Positions 5,299-62,127 of a DNA stretch of 64,000 nucleotides are shown here, in pieces. Source of the stretch: a virus; IMG/VR virus record IMGVR_UViG_3300044857_000472; one strand, 5' to 3'. Positions within the stretch are counted from its first letter, which is position 1, and each line of letters begins with the position of its first letter. The notes beneath the pieces are model-generated. The model made no database searches. It had not been told where the DNA came from and was given only the letters and a program-made list of their open reading frames with translations. The translations under genes were made by a program, and so were the position numbers.

Positions 5299-5311
5299 GT
5301 AATAATTTGTT
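5299..5311 (-). promoter_or_regulatory. Late-type promoter AACA-N6-TA
   Basis: AACA-AATTAT-TAC on the minus strand, upstream of the clpP-like gene. Confidence 0.5.
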
Positions 5312-5371: not shown

Positions 5372-7444
5372 TTACTCAGTAATAGTTACTAAGTTTACTA
5401 CATTCTTAAACATACGGTATGTAAAGAAGAACATAGCATCATTAGTACGAGCCATTGGTGGTTGGATTAAATATGATTTGAGCTGAGCTTGGTAGTTTAC
5501 TGCAAAGTGTTTCATCATGAATTTATTGTATACATCAACAAATTCAAGTTTAGTAGTTGTATAGTTAAAATGATTCATTTCAGCAAGTTTACGTTTAACA
5601 ATTGCTGCAAGGAACTTAATCTTACTAGGATAATTTTCTAATACAACTTCTATCAGCTCTGCCAACTTATCAGCATCATGTAGTTTGGTAAGATAGAAAT
5701 ATTGTAAAGCATTAAGGATTTCTGCATCATTTTTAACTTTAATAGCATTCATATAGAATTCTACTTTAGACTCATTAAAAATGAATTTCTCTTTATTCTT
5801 ATAGAGGAACATAATATCTCGTAATTTAAACTTATTACGAAGATATGTATTCATTACAAATGGATATTTTGTTTCAGAGAAAATTCTTTCTTCAAATCCT
5901 TTATTTTTAAGATTTGCAATATGGATATTTGCATCTTCTTTATATAAAAGTGAAAGATATTGATCACGGGCAGTGTACATACAGCACTTAACAATCTGTG
6001 TTAAGAACTTCTCACTGTTCCATCCAGTTGCTCCAGTTTCATCAAGATCTTTTAAGAAGCTAACAATATCCGTATCTGTTAATAATTCACCTTTATCATT
6101 AAAATAATGGGAAAGTTTATGAATTTGCTCCATTGAGTTTCTATAAAGCTCTACGGAATCACCACCATATTCAACCGATAATTCTAATTCATCAATATCA
6201 AAATAGTGAGTTCCTGGAAGACGTACTAAAGTTTTTAAATCTTCAAAAGTAGTGGACTTACTATCAGATTTTTTACGTTTAGTTTTAGTTGGAATATTTG
6301 AAGATTTAGCTTCATTGATTGTAAAACCATTTTCTTCAAGGGTTTCATTTAATTTTTCAAGAACACGATTTGCGTCCCAATCTTCTTTAGCTAAGATAAT
6401 AATATCATCTACATAAAATAAAACTTTAAAGTTATCAATATGGCGATATGAATTACGTTTAATTCTTCCAGTAAAATCTTTAAACATATACTGGATGATG
6501 ATTTTAGCAATTAAATGCTGGAAGTGAGATTCAATAGTTAGACCGGAATCTCGTCCATCTACATTCAGAAGAGATTTTACAAAGGTACGGAATTTAGCTT
6601 TCTCTAAAACTTCATCACTATAGTTAAATGTATTGAATCCAACCCATAGTGCATCAACAACTAAATCATGACTGATATTATCAAAGAATTTACTAATATC
6701 CGCATAACGAATATGGCTGTAACCTTCTTCATAGAGACGATAAGTTGTATCTTTAAATTCATCATATTCATGAATATAGTTACTGAATCGGAACTCTGAA
6801 GTATTTCCCCGCCAATCTTTTTCAGAAAGACGAATAAGACTTGTACCGAATGCCATTACATTCGGATCATAGAAAATATTTTCTGCATTAGGATTCCGGC
6901 GATAGTTCTGTACTACAATAGATCCTAATAGGATCTCCTGTACTAAGGATTTAAATACGAATTGACGTTTAGCATCAGTAGCTTTATCACTATTTTTAGG
7001 AACTGTCAAACCTAAATTGAAATCTTTTACAAGGACTTCAAGATTGTCTTTACGGTTATTAAGTTTTTCTAACTCTCTACGAATTTCTTTATCATTTTGT
7101 AGAGATACTTTATGCTTACCAAAAGAATTAATAGTTACATTATCAATAATTCCACTAGTTGAAGCAGTCAGTGCTTGATTTAGAAAAGTTCTTAAGACTT
7201 CAGTATTATTATCACTTCCTACAATGATATCTTTAATTTCACCTTTAGAATGATACGCTGTTTTAGACGCATGATAAATGGTACGCACCAAATGGTATTT
7301 GTTAATATCCATTAGCTTTAAACGATCATTAAAGTGATCATATTGAATACTTTCTCGGACATCCTTCTTCAAGATATCAATAGCCGTACCAATAGATTTT
7401 TTCAGGATTGGATAATTTTTAGTAAAGTGAATTTTCTTAGCCAT
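5372..7444 (-). CDS. Reverse transcriptase (Abi/UG/DRT-like class, long N- and C-terminal extensions)
   Basis: LTVPKN...KRQF (RT1-2), YADISKFFDNISHD (motif A), DSGLTIESHFQHLIAKI (motif B-like), LFYVDDIII (YxDD), GFTINEAKS (RT7). Confidence 0.92.
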   Translation of the reverse strand: MAKKIHFTKNYPILKKSIGTAIDILKKDVRESIQYDHFNDRLKLMDINKYHLVRTIYHASKTAYHSKGEIKDIIVGSDNNTEVLRTFLNQALTASTSGIIDNVTINSFGKHKVSLQNDKEIRRELEKLNNRKDNLEVLVKDFNLGLTVPKNSDKATDAKRQFVFKSLVQEILLGSIVVQNYRRNPNAENIFYDPNVMAFGTSLIRLSEKDWRGNTSEFRFSNYIHEYDEFKDTTYRLYEEGYSHIRYADISKFFDNISHDLVVDALWVGFNTFNYSDEVLEKAKFRTFVKSLLNVDGRDSGLTIESHFQHLIAKIIIQYMFKDFTGRIKRNSYRHIDNFKVLFYVDDIIILAKEDWDANRVLEKLNETLEENGFTINEAKSSNIPTKTKRKKSDSKSTTFEDLKTLVRLPGTHYFDIDELELSVEYGGDSVELYRNSMEQIHKLSHYFNDKGELLTDTDIVSFLKDLDETGATGWNSEKFLTQIVKCCMYTARDQYLSLLYKEDANIHIANLKNKGFEERIFSETKYPFVMNTYLRNKFKLRDIMFLYKNKEKFIFNESKVEFYMNAIKVKNDAEILNALQYFYLTKLHDADKLAELIEVVLENYPSKIKFLAAIVKRKLAEMNHFNYTTTKLEFVDVYNKFMMKHFAVNYQAQLKSYLIQPPMARTNDAMFFFTYRMFKNVVNLVTITE

Positions 7445-8080: not shown

Positions 8081-8093
8081 CTAATACCGTGTT
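8081..8093 (-). promoter_or_regulatory. Late-type promoter AACA-N6-TAG
   Basis: AACA-CGGTAT-TAG upstream of 8058. Confidence 0.6.
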
Positions 8094-8128: not shown

Positions 8129-8141
8129 AACACACTAATAG
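8129..8141 (+). promoter_or_regulatory. Late-type promoter AACA-N6-TAG
   Basis: AACA-CACTAA-TAG upstream of 8192. Confidence 0.65.
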
Positions 8142-14699: not shown

Positions 14700-14712
14700 C
14701 TATTTTAATGTT
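14700..14712 (-). promoter_or_regulatory. Late-type promoter AACA-N6-TAG
   Basis: AACA-TTAAAA-TAG upstream of rusA. Confidence 0.65.
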
Positions 14713-16517: not shown

Positions 16518-16530
16518 CTATTTAAGTGTT
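16518..16530 (-). promoter_or_regulatory. Late-type promoter AACA-N6-TAG
   Basis: AACA-CTTAAA-TAG upstream of the M15 peptidase. Confidence 0.6.
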
Positions 16531-24807: not shown

Positions 24808-24820
24808 CTAAATGAATGTT
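24808..24820 (-). promoter_or_regulatory. Late-type promoter AACA-N6-TAG (divergent pair, left)
   Basis: AACA-TTCATT-TAG. Confidence 0.65.
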
Positions 24821-24825
24821 GATGG

Positions 24826-24838
24826 AACATCAAATTAG
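24826..24838 (+). promoter_or_regulatory. Late-type promoter AACA-N6-TAG (divergent pair, right)
   Basis: AACA-TCAAAT-TAG. Confidence 0.65.
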
Positions 24839-26259: not shown

Positions 26260-27015
26260 ATGACTCTAGAAGAGTATTTAGAAAAAAATAAAGGATATGA
26301 TTTCTTTTATTCAGAAGATGATGCTAAGGATTTCTATACTTCTTTAATGTCGGGTAACTATCAAATTTGCGCAGCTTTAGCATATGATGTACTTAGAAAG
26401 AAGTATGGCTTAGTTAATCTAAATTCCTTAATAAATACTAAATTTAAGGAAGATTTTGGATATCTTACCTTAGAAAATCAAGAGAAATTGTTAAATCTTA
26501 ACTTTTTAGCTGATTCTATAGTAGCCTTAGATTTTGGTAATAGTCCATTAACTGGAAATTATTTCATCCCTGATGTAATCAATAATGATGAAGCCGTCAA
26601 AACTAAGTTTGGTCTGAAATATAGTCGTACAATGATGTCTGACCCTGAAAAATTCATTAAAGGGGTTGTCAAAGAACTTGATACCTCTTTTACAGGGATA
26701 ACTAAGACTATTATTGTAGATAAGATGCTTAATTTCTTACCTTCTACAACCGATTTAGAAGCTATATTCCCTAACTCAACTAGAAAGTTGAAAACTCATA
26801 TAGTTAATATAAAAAGTAGTAACGAATTTGCTCTTTATATGGCATTTAATGACTTTATTACTAAATCTCTAATCAATGCAGAGAAAACGTTTTATCTTAG
26901 CCATATAAGTATATTTGGTATTCATAATGAGGGTGATTGGGAGTATGTATTTTCTTCCTTCATCGGCAAAAATCAAGTTTTAGAAGATATGTTGTGTTTC
27001 GACATAACAAACTAA
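26260..27015 (+). CDS. Hypothetical protein (about 251 aa)
   Basis: GGAG SD before ATG 26260 (the track starts at TTG 26248). Confidence 0.65.
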   Translation: MTLEEYLEKNKGYDFFYSEDDAKDFYTSLMSGNYQICAALAYDVLRKKYGLVNLNSLINTKFKEDFGYLTLENQEKLLNLNFLADSIVALDFGNSPLTGNYFIPDVINNDEAVKTKFGLKYSRTMMSDPEKFIKGVVKELDTSFTGITKTIIVDKMLNFLPSTTDLEAIFPNSTRKLKTHIVNIKSSNEFALYMAFNDFITKSLINAEKTFYLSHISIFGIHNEGDWEYVFSSFIGKNQVLEDMLCFDITN

Positions 27016-27018
27016 TAG
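27006..27018 (+). promoter_or_regulatory. Late-type promoter AACA-N6-TAG
   Basis: AACA-AACTAA-TAG upstream of the prohead protease. Confidence 0.65.
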
Positions 27019-27886: not shown

Positions 27887-27903
27887 GTTTTTATCAAAAA
27901 AAA

Positions 27904-27923
27904 AAAAGACCCGGAGGTCTTTT
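27904..27923 (-). terminator. Terminator hairpin
   Basis: AAAAGACC-cgga-GGTCTTTT with a long A-run on plus. Confidence 0.7.
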
Positions 27924-28465
27924 TACGCTTCCCAATCATTCCCATTACGAGCTTGATTGAGAACTGTAGCAGTTACACTTGATTTATCCTGATTACGGTT
28001 AGTAAAGTAAGTTCTTACAAACCCTTCAGCTAAATCAAGATTTTCATCGGAATAATTAATACCTTTAGTAAGTAATGTTCCGACAAAGTTCAGTCTTGCT
28101 TTCTTAATATTAATAGCATTCCCATCTTCATTAAAATCTTTATTGATTGAATGAAAGATGTTTATAGCTACAGAAGCAACTTTAATACAGTTTTCCTTGC
28201 TAATCATTACCATTCCTTCAGGCGTATCTTCTTGCATAGCCTTGAGTTTGATAATTGTAGCAACAGTAAAAGCTGCAGTTCGACCAAGATGATCTTTATT
28301 ATTCAGATCATAACCAAAGGTCTTTGCAATACGTGTAATGGATGAACGAGCTTCTTCATTTTCAATGAAGTATGGAGCCAATTCTGCAATTTCTAAACGA
28401 CGGCAATATACACGTACATTTGTATTGAATGCATTCATGACTTCAGTAGAAATAGATGTATTCAT
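27923..28465 (-). CDS. Hypothetical protein (180 aa)
   Basis: AGGAGG SD, early-type motif upstream, own terminator. Confidence 0.75.
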   Translation of the reverse strand: MNTSISTEVMNAFNTNVRVYCRRLEIAELAPYFIENEEARSSITRIAKTFGYDLNNKDHLGRTAAFTVATIIKLKAMQEDTPEGMVMISKENCIKVASVAINIFHSINKDFNEDGNAINIKKARLNFVGTLLTKGINYSDENLDLAEGFVRTYFTNRNQDKSSVTATVLNQARNGNDWEA

Positions 28466-28512
28466 GGTAATCCTCCTAGTGTGTATGATTATTTTTATTT
28501 ACTAACACTAAA

Positions 28513-28522
28513 ATAATATATC
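28513..28522 (-). promoter_or_regulatory. Early-type promoter motif
   Basis: GATATATTAT on minus, upstream of 28465. Confidence 0.6.
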
Positions 28523-28601
28523 AATGATGCGTATACAGTTACGGGAACATAGAAATATTTCAATAAACCTTATTACTACAAAGAGAAATTTTTTTCATAC
28601 T

Positions 28602-28614
28602 AACATTAAAATAG
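28602..28614 (+). promoter_or_regulatory. Late-type promoter with no downstream ORF
   Basis: AACA-TTAAAA-TAG, identical to the site upstream of rusA. Confidence 0.55.
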
Positions 28615-28723
28615 AAAATTAAGATCGAGTCACTCGGCTTACTCTCCATGTGTATTACTACTCCTCTGACCCCATAACTAGGTTTTTGCTCCGCTTTGTT
28701 TCCCTAGTTATGGGGACTTTTTT
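28613..28723 (+). ncRNA. Candidate phage small RNA (about 111 nt)
   Basis: Late-type promoter, small hairpin CGAG-tca-CTCG, three CTCC motifs, 13-bp stem (28670-28682/28703-28715) followed by T6; only a 9-codon ORF without an SD. Confidence 0.55.
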
Positions 28724-28741
28724 CTAAAAAAAAAACAACTT

Positions 28742-28771
28742 CCCTTATACCCTCCAAAGAAGGTATAAGGG
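28742..28771 (-). terminator. Conserved-family terminator hairpin
   Basis: CCCTTATACC-ctccaaagaa-GGTATAAGGG. Confidence 0.8.
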
Positions 28772-28775
28772 TTAA

Positions 28776-29168
28776 TTAGTAGTCCATTACGACTTTACGG
28801 TATATAGATTGATAGGATTTTGGTAGACCTTTAGCTATAAAAGCTTCGATTAACTCGATAGCTTCTAGATCTTTAGGTCTACCAAGTTGCCTTTTCTCTT
28901 TAATAATACTTTCAAGAGTTTGACACTGAAAACCATCAATCAGCACATAATCGATGGTATTTCTTACACTACCAAATCCAAAATCAAATTTCTGAGCTTT
29001 TTTACTTGAAAATTTAAGACGGCTGATATATTTAATATGAATAAGTATATCAATGTCATTAGTTTGATCTTTTACTCCATGCATAACCATACTGGCACCA
29101 TGTAGTAAATATCCATGTCTTAAATTGAACTCTACTACTAGTTTAACCATTTCTTTTTTGTCGATCAT
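28776..29168 (-). CDS. Minimal nucleotidyltransferase (Pol-beta superfamily)
   Basis: LLHGASMVMHGVKDQTNDIDILI (G-x...DxD) and C-terminal LESIIKEKRQLGRPKDLEAIELI. Confidence 0.7.
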   Translation of the reverse strand: MIDKKEMVKLVVEFNLRHGYLLHGASMVMHGVKDQTNDIDILIHIKYISRLKFSSKKAQKFDFGFGSVRNTIDYVLIDGFQCQTLESIIKEKRQLGRPKDLEAIELIEAFIAKGLPKSYQSIYRKVVMDY

Positions 29169-29202
29169 GATTAAAAATCCTTTACTTAGTCAGAGATCAT
29201 CG

Positions 29203-29214
29203 TAATTATATATG
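29203..29214 (-). promoter_or_regulatory. Variant early-type promoter motif
   Basis: CATATATAATTA on minus, upstream of 29168. Confidence 0.3.
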
Positions 29215-29249
29215 TATATTAAGCCTACAGTTACAAAAAAAAAGAATGA

Positions 29250-29279
29250 ACCCTATACCCTCCGAAGAAGGTATAGGGT
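29250..29279 (-). terminator. Conserved-family terminator hairpin (cUUCGg loop on minus)
   Basis: ACCCTATACC-ctccgaagaa-GGTATAGGGT. Confidence 0.8.
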
Positions 29280-29283
29280 AGTT

Positions 29284-29649
29284 TTATTTGATTCGCTTAG
29301 AAGAATCTTGACAGATATTTGAGTATCCATCAACTTCTTTTACAACTCTACCATCATAGTAGTATTTGGTAATTAAATCGAATTTCCATACGCTACCAAT
29401 AGGTACTTTTGTACTATAAAAAGCGCAACGCTTTGATACATACATATGGCGGTAAATCACACCCGTTTCATTATCCTGTACGGTAATATAGAATCGCTTA
29501 GGGGGATCCACATCAATTACAGTAAACTTATGACTTTCTTTAATTTCTTTGATAGGATGATACTTACTAAAATCAATCTTATTGACTAAAGCTACGCAAA
29601 GCGCTACCGCTAGAATCGTTATAATTACAGTAGTTAATTTAGGACGCAT
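29284..29649 (-). CDS. Membrane-anchored hypothetical protein (121 aa)
   Basis: N-terminal hydrophobic helix VIITILAVALCVALV. Confidence 0.65.
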   Translation of the reverse strand: MRPKLTTVIITILAVALCVALVNKIDFSKYHPIKEIKESHKFTVIDVDPPKRFYITVQDNETGVIYRHMYVSKRCAFYSTKVPIGSVWKFDLITKYYYDGRVVKEVDGYSNICQDSSKRIK

Positions 29650-32257: not shown

Positions 32258-34036
32258 TTACAGTTGGCTATTCAAACGTTGACGGATCACAGTAAAATCT
32301 TCATTAGCGGCTTCAGTAAACTTACCGTTTTTGAAAATCATACGCAATTCGTTATCATCTGAATCAATTTGATCAAGAGTCAGGTCTTCTACTAACTGCA
32401 GTACACCTTTATCATTACGAATGACTTTAAGGAAGCCACGCGCTGATTTCTTACCTGGATCAGTCTTAGGTTCTTTACTAACGAGAATAGTACGGTCGCC
32501 GATGATTGAACCTGTAGCTTTACAAGCAAAGCCGAAGGTATCACGGGTATTCATCTGATAAGTAAAGGAACCGATACCCAATACTACGTTAGATGATGCA
32601 AAACCTTTCTCTTTAAGACGAGTAAAGATTTCTACAGCACGAGGAATAGTAATTGAGTCACCATAGATCAAACCGATATGGTCATTCAGTACTTTAAAGC
32701 CTTTAGTGTTAACTGAACCACCAAAGATATCCCAAAGCACTTCAATAGAACCTTTTACTTCATGAGTAGGGAGAATTTCATCCTGAATATAGAAACCTTC
32801 AAATTCGTCTTCATCTTCTGTTACAGCATAGAAGTTTCCGTTAACCATTACCGCTTCTGGATAAGGAAGAGAAGCATCCATTTCATTAATGTAACGATAA
32901 GCTTCAGATTCAGAGATAAAGTTCTTCTCTGGATAACGGAGACCACAAATTACTTTTACAGGGTCACCACTATCAGGACGAATTACCAGTTTACCAGCTC
33001 GCTTAGTAATTGACTCCAACAGGTCAGGGAGAATAACCGTCAGTACTGACCAGTAGTCGTAGGAGTCAGCTACATAAGAACATAAGCCTTCAGGTACGAT
33101 AGAAGTAATATAATGCTCAAGATAGATTTTTTCAGCTTTTAAACGTAGTGCATCAAGACTCAGGTTTGTACCATCAATCTCTGATTGTTTACGTAGGTCT
33201 TCTACGATATACATAATATTCGTAGTTGCTACAGAGTGCTCAGTTGCCGGAATACTACCCGCTACGAACTCACCTTCAGGGATTCTGTAGAAATCATGAA
33301 CTGCTTCAATAGCCAGAACAGTATCAGTACCACTAAATGACATGATATGAGCGATACCATTCTTATAGCCTTCTTCACTACAACCTAACCCACGGAATGA
33401 GAAGTCATGGAATTGGAAATCAACATGAAGATTGTTATCACAAGTTTCTTCAGCAAACTTCATACCGAGACGTTTGTAATGGAACGCAATAGTAGCGTTA
33501 GTCATTACCTTCCAGGTTTCGTCAGATAATACTGATTCGAAGTAGTTGGTTAACCATGCAAAATAGTTGTCAGCATATTTCCCTGAAAGATCATAGTCAG
33601 GAACTTTAGGGTTGGTATTGTGTACGGTATACACTGGTACCTGAATAGGGACTAAGTAGCCTTCAGGGATGCAACGGATTTCTAATGGGAGATATCCGAG
33701 GGTATGGAGAGCTTCTAAATGTTTTAAAGAGACTTTGTCTTTACCTAATGAAGCGTCTACGATGCGTTTGTATTTAACAATGGCTACTTCTTTAGGAAGT
33801 TGGAAGAAGGTTACTGACCAGAGGGATACAAGCATTTTGATACGCATTGAAATCCCTGCTGAGATAACACCACGTTTTTGATCATCCCAATAGTGATTAA
33901 AGTACTTATCTGAACGAGGAGTAAAGTTGGTAAAGATTACTTTACTTTCTTTATGGTACATGCTAGGATGACCAATTTTATAGAAGTCGGTAGACAGTGA
34001 TGCAGAAGGTACAGCTAAGCCATTTTCAAGAAACAT
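32258..34036 (-). CDS. Nicotinamide phosphoribosyltransferase-like enzyme (Namat of NARP1 if paired with Adps)
   Basis: TDFYKIGH, FHDFSFRG, HIMSFSGTDT, SIPATEHSV, VADSYD, LVIRPDSGDP, GLIYGDSIT, LGIGSFTYQMNTRDTFGFACK. Confidence 0.93.
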   Translation of the reverse strand: MFLENGLAVPSASLSTDFYKIGHPSMYHKESKVIFTNFTPRSDKYFNHYWDDQKRGVISAGISMRIKMLVSLWSVTFFQLPKEVAIVKYKRIVDASLGKDKVSLKHLEALHTLGYLPLEIRCIPEGYLVPIQVPVYTVHNTNPKVPDYDLSGKYADNYFAWLTNYFESVLSDETWKVMTNATIAFHYKRLGMKFAEETCDNNLHVDFQFHDFSFRGLGCSEEGYKNGIAHIMSFSGTDTVLAIEAVHDFYRIPEGEFVAGSIPATEHSVATTNIMYIVEDLRKQSEIDGTNLSLDALRLKAEKIYLEHYITSIVPEGLCSYVADSYDYWSVLTVILPDLLESITKRAGKLVIRPDSGDPVKVICGLRYPEKNFISESEAYRYINEMDASLPYPEAVMVNGNFYAVTEDEDEFEGFYIQDEILPTHEVKGSIEVLWDIFGGSVNTKGFKVLNDHIGLIYGDSITIPRAVEIFTRLKEKGFASSNVVLGIGSFTYQMNTRDTFGFACKATGSIIGDRTILVSKEPKTDPGKKSARGFLKVIRNDKGVLQLVEDLTLDQIDSDDNELRMIFKNGKFTEAANEDFTVIRQRLNSQL

Positions 34037-49043: not shown

Positions 49044-49056
49044 CTAAATTCTTGTT
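49044..49056 (-). promoter_or_regulatory. Late-type promoter AACA-N6-TAG
   Basis: AACA-AGAATT-TAG upstream of 49012. Confidence 0.6.
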
Positions 49057-54707: not shown

Positions 54708-54933
54708 CCTTAATTTCCTTTACATACATTTTTATCGTAGTTCTAGTAGAACCGTAGGAATCCGGTCGTTTAAGTAAGCATATTGCTTCCGGTAGACCAT
54801 TCACCAAAACTCTAATACTGCCTACAATTCTATACACATCATCAATATCAAAAGGTAAGCTAGTAGAGCTATGCATATTATCTTTAAAGAAATCTGATGC
54901 AATATGCATTAGACTAAATTTTGAGTGTCGCAT
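54700..54933 (-). CDS. Array small protein
   Basis: 77 aa, starts MRHSKF. Confidence 0.6.
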   Translation of the reverse strand: MRHSKFSLMHIASDFFKDNMHSSTSLPFDIDDVYRIVGSIRVLVNGLPEAICLLKRPDSYGSTRTTIKMYVKEIKDV

Positions 54934-55147
54934 TTAAAAGTCCCTTATTCAGCATGTTAAAAATTTCTTTTTCACTAAAATCAATAACAAATCTATCATA
55001 TTCTAAGTAAATCATATTTTTAAAGCCGAAAACCATATCAGAACTTGTAATATAATGAATTTGAGTTCTTAGTTCTGGTAGGTTCATTGAATCGGCTGCA
55101 GCAAAATCATTAGCAAAGTAGGAAAAAAGTTTCTTATACTTCTTCAT
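54914..55147 (-). CDS. Array small protein
   Basis: 77 aa, starts MKKYKK. Confidence 0.6.
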   Translation of the reverse strand: MKKYKKLFSYFANDFAAADSMNLPELRTQIHYITSSDMVFGFKNMIYLEYDRFVIDFSEKEIFNMLNKGLLNATLKI

Positions 55148-55356
55148 AGATATTTCCTATCTTTATATACTTCTCTAGCTCCTAAAACTAGTGGAATCGT
55201 ATAACTACTAAGATACAAACATGGATGAATAACGCCTTGATGATCATTTACCAATTGCAAAATTACATTATAACTTTTAAGTATCACTCCATTACGTATT
55301 GAATAATCTTTATCTATTTTTAAATTACTACGTTTGTTTTTCTTGTAACGTTCCAT
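55144..55356 (-). CDS. Array small protein
   Basis: 70 aa, starts MERYKK. Confidence 0.55.
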   Translation of the reverse strand: MERYKKNKRSNLKIDKDYSIRNGVILKSYNVILQLVNDHQGVIHPCLYLSSYTIPLVLGAREVYKDRKYL

Positions 55357-61447: not shown

Positions 61448-61695
61448 AAATAATACCTTGAATTTATAGCATTAATAATATTTATCATATGAACTTCAAC
61501 AATTTCTTTACGAAAAGTTCTTTTCCCTCTCTGGATTAGATGAATTTCATATGCTAACTCTCTAGTCAGATTGCAATTGTATTCATATATAAATATAGCT
61601 AAGGAAGCTCTCACACGCTCTAGAATGAGAGAACCATAATTTGGTAGATTACTTACACCCTTATTAGTATTTCTTCTACCTTTATTAATTTTCAT
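61444..61695 (-). CDS. Array small protein
   Basis: 83 aa, starts MKINKG. Confidence 0.65.
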   Translation of the reverse strand: MKINKGRRNTNKGVSNLPNYGSLILERVRASLAIFIYEYNCNLTRELAYEIHLIQRGKRTFRKEIVEVHMINIINAINSRYYL

Positions 61696-61697
61696 GC

Positions 61698-61931
61698 TTA
61701 CCTCGGATTAATCAAGAAATTCTTCCTGAATTCTAAATGTACTACTTCCCTATCACCCCATCCACCATTAATCTTTTCTACTATATAAAAAGCAAACATA
61801 CATAGTGGAGCATAACTCATCTCAAACAGATCAATTATATTCTCTAGGTCAGATAGATTAACAGTATAAGTCGTAACCATAGTAAATTCAGTATTTGGTA
61901 TGCTATGCTTTAAACCTTTACGTATTTTCAT
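61698..61931 (-). CDS. Array small protein
   Basis: 77 aa, starts MKIRKG. Confidence 0.65.
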   Translation of the reverse strand: MKIRKGLKHSIPNTEFTMVTTYTVNLSDLENIIDLFEMSYAPLCMFAFYIVEKINGGWGDREVVHLEFRKNFLINPR

Positions 61932-62127
61932 TAGAAAACGCTCTTTTTCCTTTAAATTTTATATGTACATTGTGATTCTCATTGATTTTGATAATAGATG
62001 AGAATACTCCTTCACTCTTAATGAATCTGGAGACACTGGCATAAGATGCGTTCTTATCAAAGAAAACTCCGGCACTTATTACCATGTATGATGGTAATAG
62101 AAAACTAGGATATTTATTAATCTTCAT
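61918..62127 (-). CDS. Array small protein
   Basis: 69 aa, starts MKINKY. Confidence 0.65.
   Translation of the reverse strand: MKINKYPSFLLPSYMVISAGVFFDKNASYASVSRFIKSEGVFSSIIKINENHNVHIKFKGKRAFSNENT

Follow-up and report, generated by a model that had tools for sequence, protein, structure and literature searches.

Genomic context of the locus

The stretch of viral DNA considered here, the 64,000 nucleotides (nt) of IMG/VR record IMGVR_UViG_3300044857_000472 (hereafter, the window), carries on its plus strand, from 28613 to about 28722, a candidate non-coding RNA gene of approximately 110 nt that would be read from a late phage promoter. Over 27900-29300, the window shares 96.4% identity with phiR1-37 (AJ972879.2), a Yersinia jumbo phage of 262 kilobases (kb) whose DNA is reported to contain deoxyuridine (dU), and by this resemblance the window phage is a giant uracil-DNA Yersinia phage and a close relative of phiR1-37. 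The RNA unit is placed between homologues of g078 (27923-28465, minus strand) and g077 (28776-29168, minus strand). As a preliminary description of the window had noted, the gap between them (28466-28775, 310 nt) is the largest in the window among crude gene calls.

The equivalent interval in phiR1-37 lies on the minus strand of the record (32,965-33,088) and is without annotation; the only features annotated at the locus are the g078 promoter and the g077 terminator. The phiR1-37 transcriptome places g078 among early genes with very high expression and g077 among constitutive genes, and Table S2 of the same study names g077 a LinA-like nucleotidyltransferase (PMC4848604). The g077 homologue gave no Pfam match. 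The predicted features of the locus are listed below in window coordinates; variants are the five distinct versions of the locus described under conservation.

28501-28525, minus strand: early-type promoter of the g078 homologue, annotated in phiR1-37 and divergent from the RNA unit.
28602-28614, plus strand: late promoter of the AR9 non-virion RNA polymerase (nvRNAP) type, AACATTAAAATAG (consensus from PMC5312081 and PMC9209446).
28613-28619, plus strand: A-rich 5' end of the RNA, AGAAAAU, invariant in all variants and partly unpaired in the predicted ensemble.
28620-28641, plus strand: 5' hairpin, UAAG-A-UCGAG / loop UCA / CUCGG-CUUA, 9 base pairs (bp) with one bulge, predicted in five of five variants.
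28642-28650, plus strand: pyrimidine box 1, CUCUCCAUG, with the first CUCC; invariant and predicted to be unpaired (probability about 0.6-0.9).
28651-28658, plus strand: variable linker, with substitutions and a 1-nt indel among relatives.
28659-28669, plus strand: pyrimidine box 2, UAC(U/C)CCUCU(G/A)A, with the second CUCC; predicted to be unpaired.
28670-28723, plus strand: putative intrinsic terminator with a 13-bp stem, a 20-nt loop and AC plus U6; stem and loop identical in 11 of 11 aligned sequences.
28742-28771, minus strand: convergent terminator of the g077 homologue (28776-29168, minus strand), a member of a repeated terminator family, annotated in phiR1-37.

A predicted late promoter with a genome-wide signal

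The promoter assigned to the unit has AACA at 28602-28605 (positions -11 to -8), the spacer TTAAAA, T28612 at -1, A28613 at +1 and G at +2. This layout corresponds to the late consensus of phage AR9, AACA-N6-TA/G, in which the last base is the start (PMC5312081). The AR9 nvRNAP reads this promoter in the uracil-containing template strand, as 3'-UUGU-N6-AU-5', and also initiates on single-stranded DNA (PMC9209446). According to the literature, phiR1-37 is the closest relative of AR9, and the AR9 nvRNAP is partly active on phiR1-37 DNA; no late consensus had been obtained for phiR1-37 itself (PMC5312081). The AR9 rule gives A28613, position 33,077 of the phiR1-37 record, as the start, which is the +1 that the preliminary description had proposed and which is predicted rather than mapped. 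The same description had called the site a perfect copy of one preceding rusA, and this was confirmed: the only other exact copy of AACATTAAAATAG in the window is at 14700-14712 (minus strand), 32 nt upstream of a Pfam RusA gene, and identity between the two sites extends to the 16-mer ACTAACATTAAAATAG.

The whole phiR1-37 genome, to which the following counts refer, contains 69 AACA-N6-TAG sites. Fifty-one are wholly intergenic, against 4.4 +/- 2.0 expected for the 8% of the genome that is intergenic (12-fold enrichment), and 11 fall in coding DNA, against 54 +/- 6.8 expected (5-fold depletion). In 51 of the 69, the predicted start falls 10-70 nt upstream of a co-oriented start codon. Control motifs have 14-27 sites upstream of co-oriented starts, except for the far commoner AATA-N6-T[AG], for which 66 of 957 sites (7%) are so placed; a spacer of 5 or 7 nt, or a permuted tetramer, shows no association with genes. 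The motif is a real signal because it is so strongly enriched between genes and depleted inside them. It behaves as the late-promoter consensus of phiR1-37-like phages, with the extended form tAACA-N5-(T/A)TAG(T/A), and it occurs at homologous positions also in relatives with about 50% protease identity. This provides a late-promoter rule for phiR1-37, a lineage whose late signals had been said to be unknown, and the transcription map can be re-annotated with it.

The 28602 site is one of very few AACA-N6-TAG copies without a protein gene behind it. Since coding DNA has been cleared of the motif and almost every copy stands at the head of a transcription unit, a perfect and invariant copy is unlikely to be silent. 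Further late-motif sites in the window are at 5300-5311, 8082-8093, 14701-14712, 16519-16530, 24809-24820 and 49045-49056 on the minus strand and at 8129-8140, 24826-24837 and 27006-27017 on the plus strand. In phiR1-37, one AACA-N6-TAG site lies 169 nt upstream of the phage tRNA-Arg/Leu/Leu cluster; this link is positional only, since an annotated terminator and an early-type promoter stand between the two.

Terminator, fold and coding capacity

The terminator stem is formed by CCCCATAACTAGG (28670-28682) and CCTAGTTATGGGG (28703-28715), with six G-C pairs, and encloses the invariant 20-nt loop UUUUUGCUCCGCUUUGUUUC (28683-28702), in which the third CUCC lies within a GCUCCGC core. The stem is followed by AC and T6 (28716-28723). 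Relatives carry U7-U12, so that the U-tract measures 6-12 U across all of them, and it is present on the plus strand only. The 13-bp stem with T6 and the convergent terminator of the 28776 gene (28771-28742, minus strand), both of which the preliminary description had reported, are present. According to the gene calls, no plus-strand gene ends at the terminator, and it would therefore serve only a transcript from the 28602 promoter.

The 20-nt loop is outside the short-loop range (3-8 nt) of intrinsic terminators. Among 90 hairpins in phiR1-37 that combine a stem with a T-run, nearly all belong to a stereotyped small-loop family, and only the terminator of the RNA unit has a 13-bp stem with a loop of at least 20 nt. 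A loop of this size may weaken termination, which bears on the possibility that the unit is a leader or attenuator whose read-through product forms a late antisense RNA across g077, with the reported phiR1-37 RNA misc_3 as its downstream part. The position of misc_3 (record 32,500-32,820), on the same strand, about 145 nt downstream and antisense to the g077 5' end, would suit such a leader. However, misc_3 is reported to begin inside g077 and not at 33,077, read-through would have to pass two hairpins, and relatives with g077 replaced or missing conserve the RNA just as well, all of which make a leader quite improbable.

The RNA folds at -30.5 kcal/mol (z = -3.7), better than 200 of 200 shuffles. 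The predicted fold, common to the five variants, consists of the 5' hairpin, about 28 unpaired pyrimidine-rich nt and the open-loop terminator. The CGAG/CTCG hairpin of the preliminary description falls within 28620-28641, and its three CTCC motifs start at 28644, 28661 and 28689. With these, all the sequence features named in that description are confirmed at their stated positions. Both boxes (28642-28650 and 28659-28669) and the loop have a predicted unpaired probability of at least 0.6 in the five variants. Three CTCC motifs in 111 nt are uncommon but not extreme, as 1.3% of composition-matched shuffles and 0.25% of the 111-nt segments of the window reach this number. Comparison of the window with Rfam 15 families gave no match, the best sub-threshold score being 24.6 bits against a cut-off of 63 and arising from generic hairpins. 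ARAGORN likewise detected no tRNA or tmRNA.

The plus strand of the unit contains open reading frames (ORFs) of 9 and 25 amino acids (aa), neither conserved in relatives. No reading frame is conserved, because the linker varies and carries a 1-nt indel that shifts every frame. The minus strand offers another explanation of the CTCC motifs, as the mirror of a ribosome-binding site (RBS) for a small protein starting at ATG 28649 (MESKPSDSILIFYFNVS..., 29 aa, 28560-28649); the plus-strand RNA, if made, would then be an antisense regulator resembling those of type I toxin-antitoxin systems. This frame is open in five of five variants, an SD-like (Shine-Dalgarno-like) GAGG(A/G)G and the ATG are conserved, and the variable linker falls where the SD-to-start spacer would be, with GAGGAG 10-11 nt upstream. 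Nevertheless, its length ranges from 17 to 42 aa with unrelated C-termini, and its first 17 codons contain four non-synonymous and no synonymous substitutions. The ORF lies directly after the g077 terminator, with no early or late promoter motif between them, its window version is without a membrane-like segment, and the invariant upstream hairpin would be left unexplained. Type I toxin-antitoxin loci have, opposite the RNA, a small hydrophobic ORF that is conserved and served by a promoter of its own; nothing of the kind was found at the locus, and this explanation is very improbable.

Conservation among relatives

Starting from g078 homologues (64-91% protein identity), ten metagenomic contigs were collected; nine extend to the locus and, together with the window, provide five distinct versions of it. 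In the five variants, which come from independent metagenomes, 48-53 of 53 positions are identical in the promoter and 5' part and 52-53 of 53 in box 2 and the terminator. The AACA and TAG elements, the first 38 nt, both boxes and the whole terminator hairpin are invariant or nearly so. Conservation of promoter and hairpin, on which the preliminary description had staked its prediction, was observed: AACA, TAG and the terminator stem and loop are kept in 11 of 11 aligned sequences, and the sole promoter change lies inside the N6 spacer, in contig L013. The other changes outside the linker are one in the 5' hairpin loop, one U-G to U-A in the 5' stem and one broken terminal pair. The rest form a cluster of substitutions and an indel in the 8-12-nt linker, and the block 28651-28662, which extends 4 nt into box 2, retains 8-9 of 12-13 positions in L008, L009 and L013.

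By comparison, identity in g078 is 70-72% for nucleotides and 64-68% for the protein. In g079, the well-conserved protease gene, 17-18% of four-fold sites differ, and the spacer that immediately precedes the promoter (28560-28598) is variable. Both the window and the complete phiR1-37 genome contain a single copy of the unit, which is retained in relatives in which g077 is replaced or missing. Exact-pattern scans of IMG/VR for the loop and for the 5' half returned only phiR1-37 itself. Five metagenome matches to the loop 20-mer were rejected as chance, being unrelated sequences, one of which reads as a helicase-like coding frame. An exhaustive profile search found no distant g078 homologues in the searched library, only a single 50% cluster.

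Conservation of this kind could also be expected of an element acting as DNA, such as back-to-back insulating terminators or a recombination linker for module exchange, in which case the promoter motif would be incidental or weak. The conserved island borders a variable region (L004 and L009 carry another ORF in place of g077, and L008 lacks it), g078 on its other side is fast-evolving, other intergenic regulatory DNA is equally conserved, and published RNA sequencing (RNA-seq) is without a transcript here. On the other hand, as set out above, a perfect and invariant AACA-N6-TAG copy is unlikely to be silent, and the U-tract points in a direction where no other transcript would need to end. 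If the element were a terminator and nothing more, it is not obvious what purpose its conserved 5' 38 nt and invariant loop would serve; in addition, the island is single-copy, unlike the repeated terminator family. Cumulative skew tracks gene orientation and indicates no replication origin at the locus. Taken with these points, a DNA-level element is distinctly unlikely.

Evidence for and against a late transcript

The late non-coding transcription unit is probably real, at an estimated probability of roughly three in four. That it is an ORF-less late unit, as first described, is well supported by the promoter statistics, the terminator logic, the conservation and the lack of a conserved ORF. 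Judged on its sequence, it is likely to represent a candidate single-copy, independently transcribed non-coding RNA (ncRNA) gene of phiR1-37-like uracil-DNA jumbo phages. In the proposed sequence of events, the phage nvRNAP would start at A28613 from the AACA-N6-TAG late promoter and stop at the 13-bp hairpin and U-tract. The RNA would fold into the 5' hairpin, an unpaired stretch of about 28 nt in which the boxes CUCUCCAUG and C-CCUCU-R-A flank a linker free to vary, and the terminator with its invariant 20-nt loop.

Several observations weigh against a late non-coding transcript. Its 20-nt loop is unusual for an efficient terminator. Other regulatory intergenic stretches of the same block are similarly conserved, at 90-100%, and conservation consequently argues for function, not for RNA function specifically. 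An analysis of covariance had been suggested for related phages; the fold recurs in five variants, but double-sided covariation was not found in the base pairs of the unit among the aligned relatives, which are too close for any to be counted. A search of the 20 kb around the protease gene in three more distant relatives (about 50% protease identity) did not reveal the RNA; gene order and AACA-N6-TAG are kept there, and a covariance model matches only generic terminators within 10 kb on either side.

The remaining point concerns expression. Silica-column kits retain RNAs shorter than 200 nt poorly, and combined with 90-nt paired reads they under-represent structured RNAs of 110 nt. The RNA-seq of phiR1-37, which used a silica-column total-RNA kit and 90-nt paired reads, reported ten new RNAs, and the unit is not among them (PMC4848604). 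Because of the kit, absence from the published list is a weak negative. Public RNA runs that match the locus consist of assembled contigs of 13-22 kb and are uninformative on expression, ends and strand. Two small transcriptomic runs from 2015/2016 match phiR1-37 at every site where phiR1-37 differs from the window. In the paper describing ten thousand viral structured RNAs, phiR1-37 is named only for misc_4.

Very few small RNAs have been described from strictly lytic phages, and almost none has an assigned function. If the RNA exists, a conserved regulatory RNA would here be produced by a multisubunit polymerase that the phage itself encodes, with uracil-DNA as the template. If it is not made, the locus would still provide a clean test of how strictly the promoter motif predicts transcription.

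Possible functions of the RNA

The anatomy of the unit is that expected of a base-pairing small RNA (sRNA) with seeds complementing GGAG/GAGG, since the five variants fold alike with an open pyrimidine stretch and loop. In the anti-SD mechanism raised by the preliminary description, the exposed CUCC/CCUC boxes may pair with purine-rich GGAG/GAGG RBSs, which are concentrated in early genes of the phage and also present in host mRNAs. Late in infection, the RNA would then lower translation of early-class or host messages. Pairing of this kind is a weaker inference than transcription of the unit, and the mechanism can be proposed only tentatively.

Start regions of the first genes behind early-type (TATAT[TA]AT) and late-type promoters were compared in phiR1-37, with 54 genes in each of these crude promoter-motif classes. 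GGAG or GAGG is present at -20 to -3 in 23 of 54 early-first genes (43%) and in 5 of 54 late-first genes (9%; Fisher p = 1.3e-4). GGAG alone is present in 14 and 2 of 54, respectively (p = 0.002), and most late-first genes have AGGA. For all three RNA segments, pairing is stronger at early start regions than at late ones, and for the loop, the early-late difference exceeds that of all 150 composition-matched shuffles. If true, this would offer a testable route by which a jumbo phage lowers its early genes, in which the RBS flavours of early and late genes differ and a late RNA complements the early flavour.

Other results speak against pairing with SD sequences. The preference of boxes 1 and 2 does not exceed that of shuffles (p = 0.07-0.25), and a plain anti-SD control sequence likewise prefers early genes. 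The second CUCC is CCCC in two of the five variants (L009 and L013), where C-CCUCU-R-A is kept. As for target prediction, which the preliminary description had proposed, a complementarity search of the phiR1-37 genome gave no outstanding target, and perfect complementarity of at least 12 nt occurs at only three non-self sites, one of them at a start region (record 155052), a count without a valid chance comparison. Accordingly, the predicted accessibility of the mostly conserved boxes and the richness of early RBSs in GGAG/GAGG fit the anti-SD proposal, whereas no single target is conspicuous and no covariation was seen.

The main alternative to the anti-SD proposal is that the RNA is real but binds protein, acting as a sponge or decoy either for an RNA-binding protein of host or phage, such as Hfq, ribosomal protein S1 or a cold-shock protein, or for the phage nvRNAP, with the loop and the pyrimidine stretch as putative sites. 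A-R-N motifs and a U-tail are features of Hfq-bound sRNAs, and the unit has A-R-N-like triplets at its 5' end and a U-tail at its 3' end. The loop is invariant in 11 of 11 sequences, beyond the usual need of a pairing seed, its large open form is unique among the phage terminators, and no mRNA target stands out. The loop also contains 5'-UGUU-3', the template-strand promoter element of the AR9 nvRNAP, an enzyme that initiates on single-stranded DNA. These motifs are short, however, and by estimate about one in three U-rich 20-mers would contain UGUU by chance; with relatives this close, invariance also says less than it seems to. A protein-binding role is on balance rather unlikely.

A special form of such binding would be a 6S-like decoy for the phage nvRNAP that imitates an open uracil promoter, tuning or stopping late transcription or holding the polymerase for packaging-stage events. 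The UGUU of the loop lies two bases from the 13-bp helix, like the -11 to -8 element beside the upstream duplex. Six bases past UGUU is a C, where a G-start promoter has +1, and the -1 position does not fit. 6S RNA is an open-promoter mimic that sequesters RNA polymerase, and the unit resembles it as a structured RNA with a large open region beside a helix. It is much smaller than 6S RNA; compared with the promoter that it would imitate, it consists of ribo- and not deoxyribonucleotides, the -1 position is a mismatch, and the match is a 4-mer that chance could supply. A decoy of this type is a long shot.

The preliminary description had also suggested that the RNA could be a structured partner of a phage enzyme such as the reverse transcriptase (RT); in that role it would be a template or primer. 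The phage does encode an RT (RVT_1 match in phiR1-37 record 54,883-55,326, equivalent to window 5372-7444), but the gene is 21 kb from the unit. Known RT-associated ncRNAs (retron msr/msd, DRT-type) adjoin the RT gene, an arrangement not found here, and the comparison with Rfam, the only one made, gave no match. This suggestion is scarcely credible and was rejected.

Relation to known systems

The unit is best regarded as a new candidate in an established class, the small RNAs of phages, and one restricted to its lineage. The closest parallel to its promoter is provided by the late units of AR9, which is likewise a uracil-DNA jumbo phage and which shares AACA at -11 to -8, the 6-nt spacer, T at -1 and an A/G start. 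In AR9, a tRNA gene and antisense RNAs are likewise under late promoters, and transcription ends at hairpin terminators (PMC5312081, PMC5449584, PMC9209446). In contrast to the candidate described here, whose start is predicted only, no free-standing late small RNA has been reported in AR9.

Within the same lineage, the list of new phiR1-37 RNAs comprises misc_4 and nine antisense RNAs, and misc_4 is an ORF-less intergenic RNA proposed to target host mRNAs (Leskinen et al. 2016, PMC4848604). The two RNAs differ in position (record 61,640-61,936 for misc_4, on the reported plus strand, versus 32,965-33,077) and have no sequence relation. In addition, misc_4 was recognized by read coverage, whereas the present unit was recognized by promoter, terminator and conservation.

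Among bacterial and prophage RNAs, base-pairing sRNAs with C/U-rich seeds mask the SD sequence, for example through the UCCC loops of S. aureus RNAIII and RsaE, or as Hfq-dependent enterobacterial sRNAs. The unit is like such base-pairing sRNAs in having its own predicted promoter, a U-tailed intrinsic terminator, a length of about 100 nt and conserved, putatively unpaired pyrimidine motifs complementary to GGAG/GAGG. It would differ from them in being made by a phage polymerase late in the lytic cycle, and it differs in carrying one motif in a 20-nt terminator loop and in having neither an Rfam match nor an outstanding target. A functional analogy may also be drawn with T4 RegB, a protein endoribonuclease that cuts GGAG in the RBSs of early messages. 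The proposed outcome would be alike, namely inactivation of early messages via GGAG, by pairing in the case of the RNA unit and by cleavage in the case of RegB.

Additional observations

Other late promoters in the phiR1-37 record, outside the window, also stand apart from annotated genes. At 71,138-71,271, a second short late unit, unannotated, consists of AACA-N6-TAG and an annotated terminator about 85 nt further on. It contains a 39-codon ORF that begins 5 nt after the predicted start, without an SD sequence, and encodes a hydrophobic peptide (MKPPAVSASRFGYFLASFISFLLLWSLG...). Another orphan late promoter is at 72,051. A third, at 62,016-62,027 (minus strand), is just outside the window start and points left across the misc_4 interval toward g099, an RNA polymerase beta-like gene. 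The RNA misc_4 may be a long late 5' leader, or its reported strand may need to be re-checked.

Upstream of the RNA, on the same strand, further AACA-N6-TA sites without a TAG ending are present at 28504-28516 and 28546-28558; in neither is AACA kept by every relative. Upstream of the early promoter of g078, the block TACGGGAACATAGAAAT (28540-28556) is conserved. The gene on the far side of the unit is variable. An unrelated-looking ORF of 232 aa replaces g077 in L004 (92-790) and L009 (326-1024), and in L008, which is without g077, a 101-aa ORF (L008:1851-2156) abuts the RNA unit.

The terminator family to which the g077 terminator belongs has the form CCCTATACC-loop-GGTATAGGG and occurs in the window at 28742-28771 and 29250-29279 and at many sites in phiR1-37. 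Four metagenome contigs (L005, L010, L011 and L013) stop precisely at this repeat, some 310 nt upstream of g078, which indicates that the repeat breaks assemblies.

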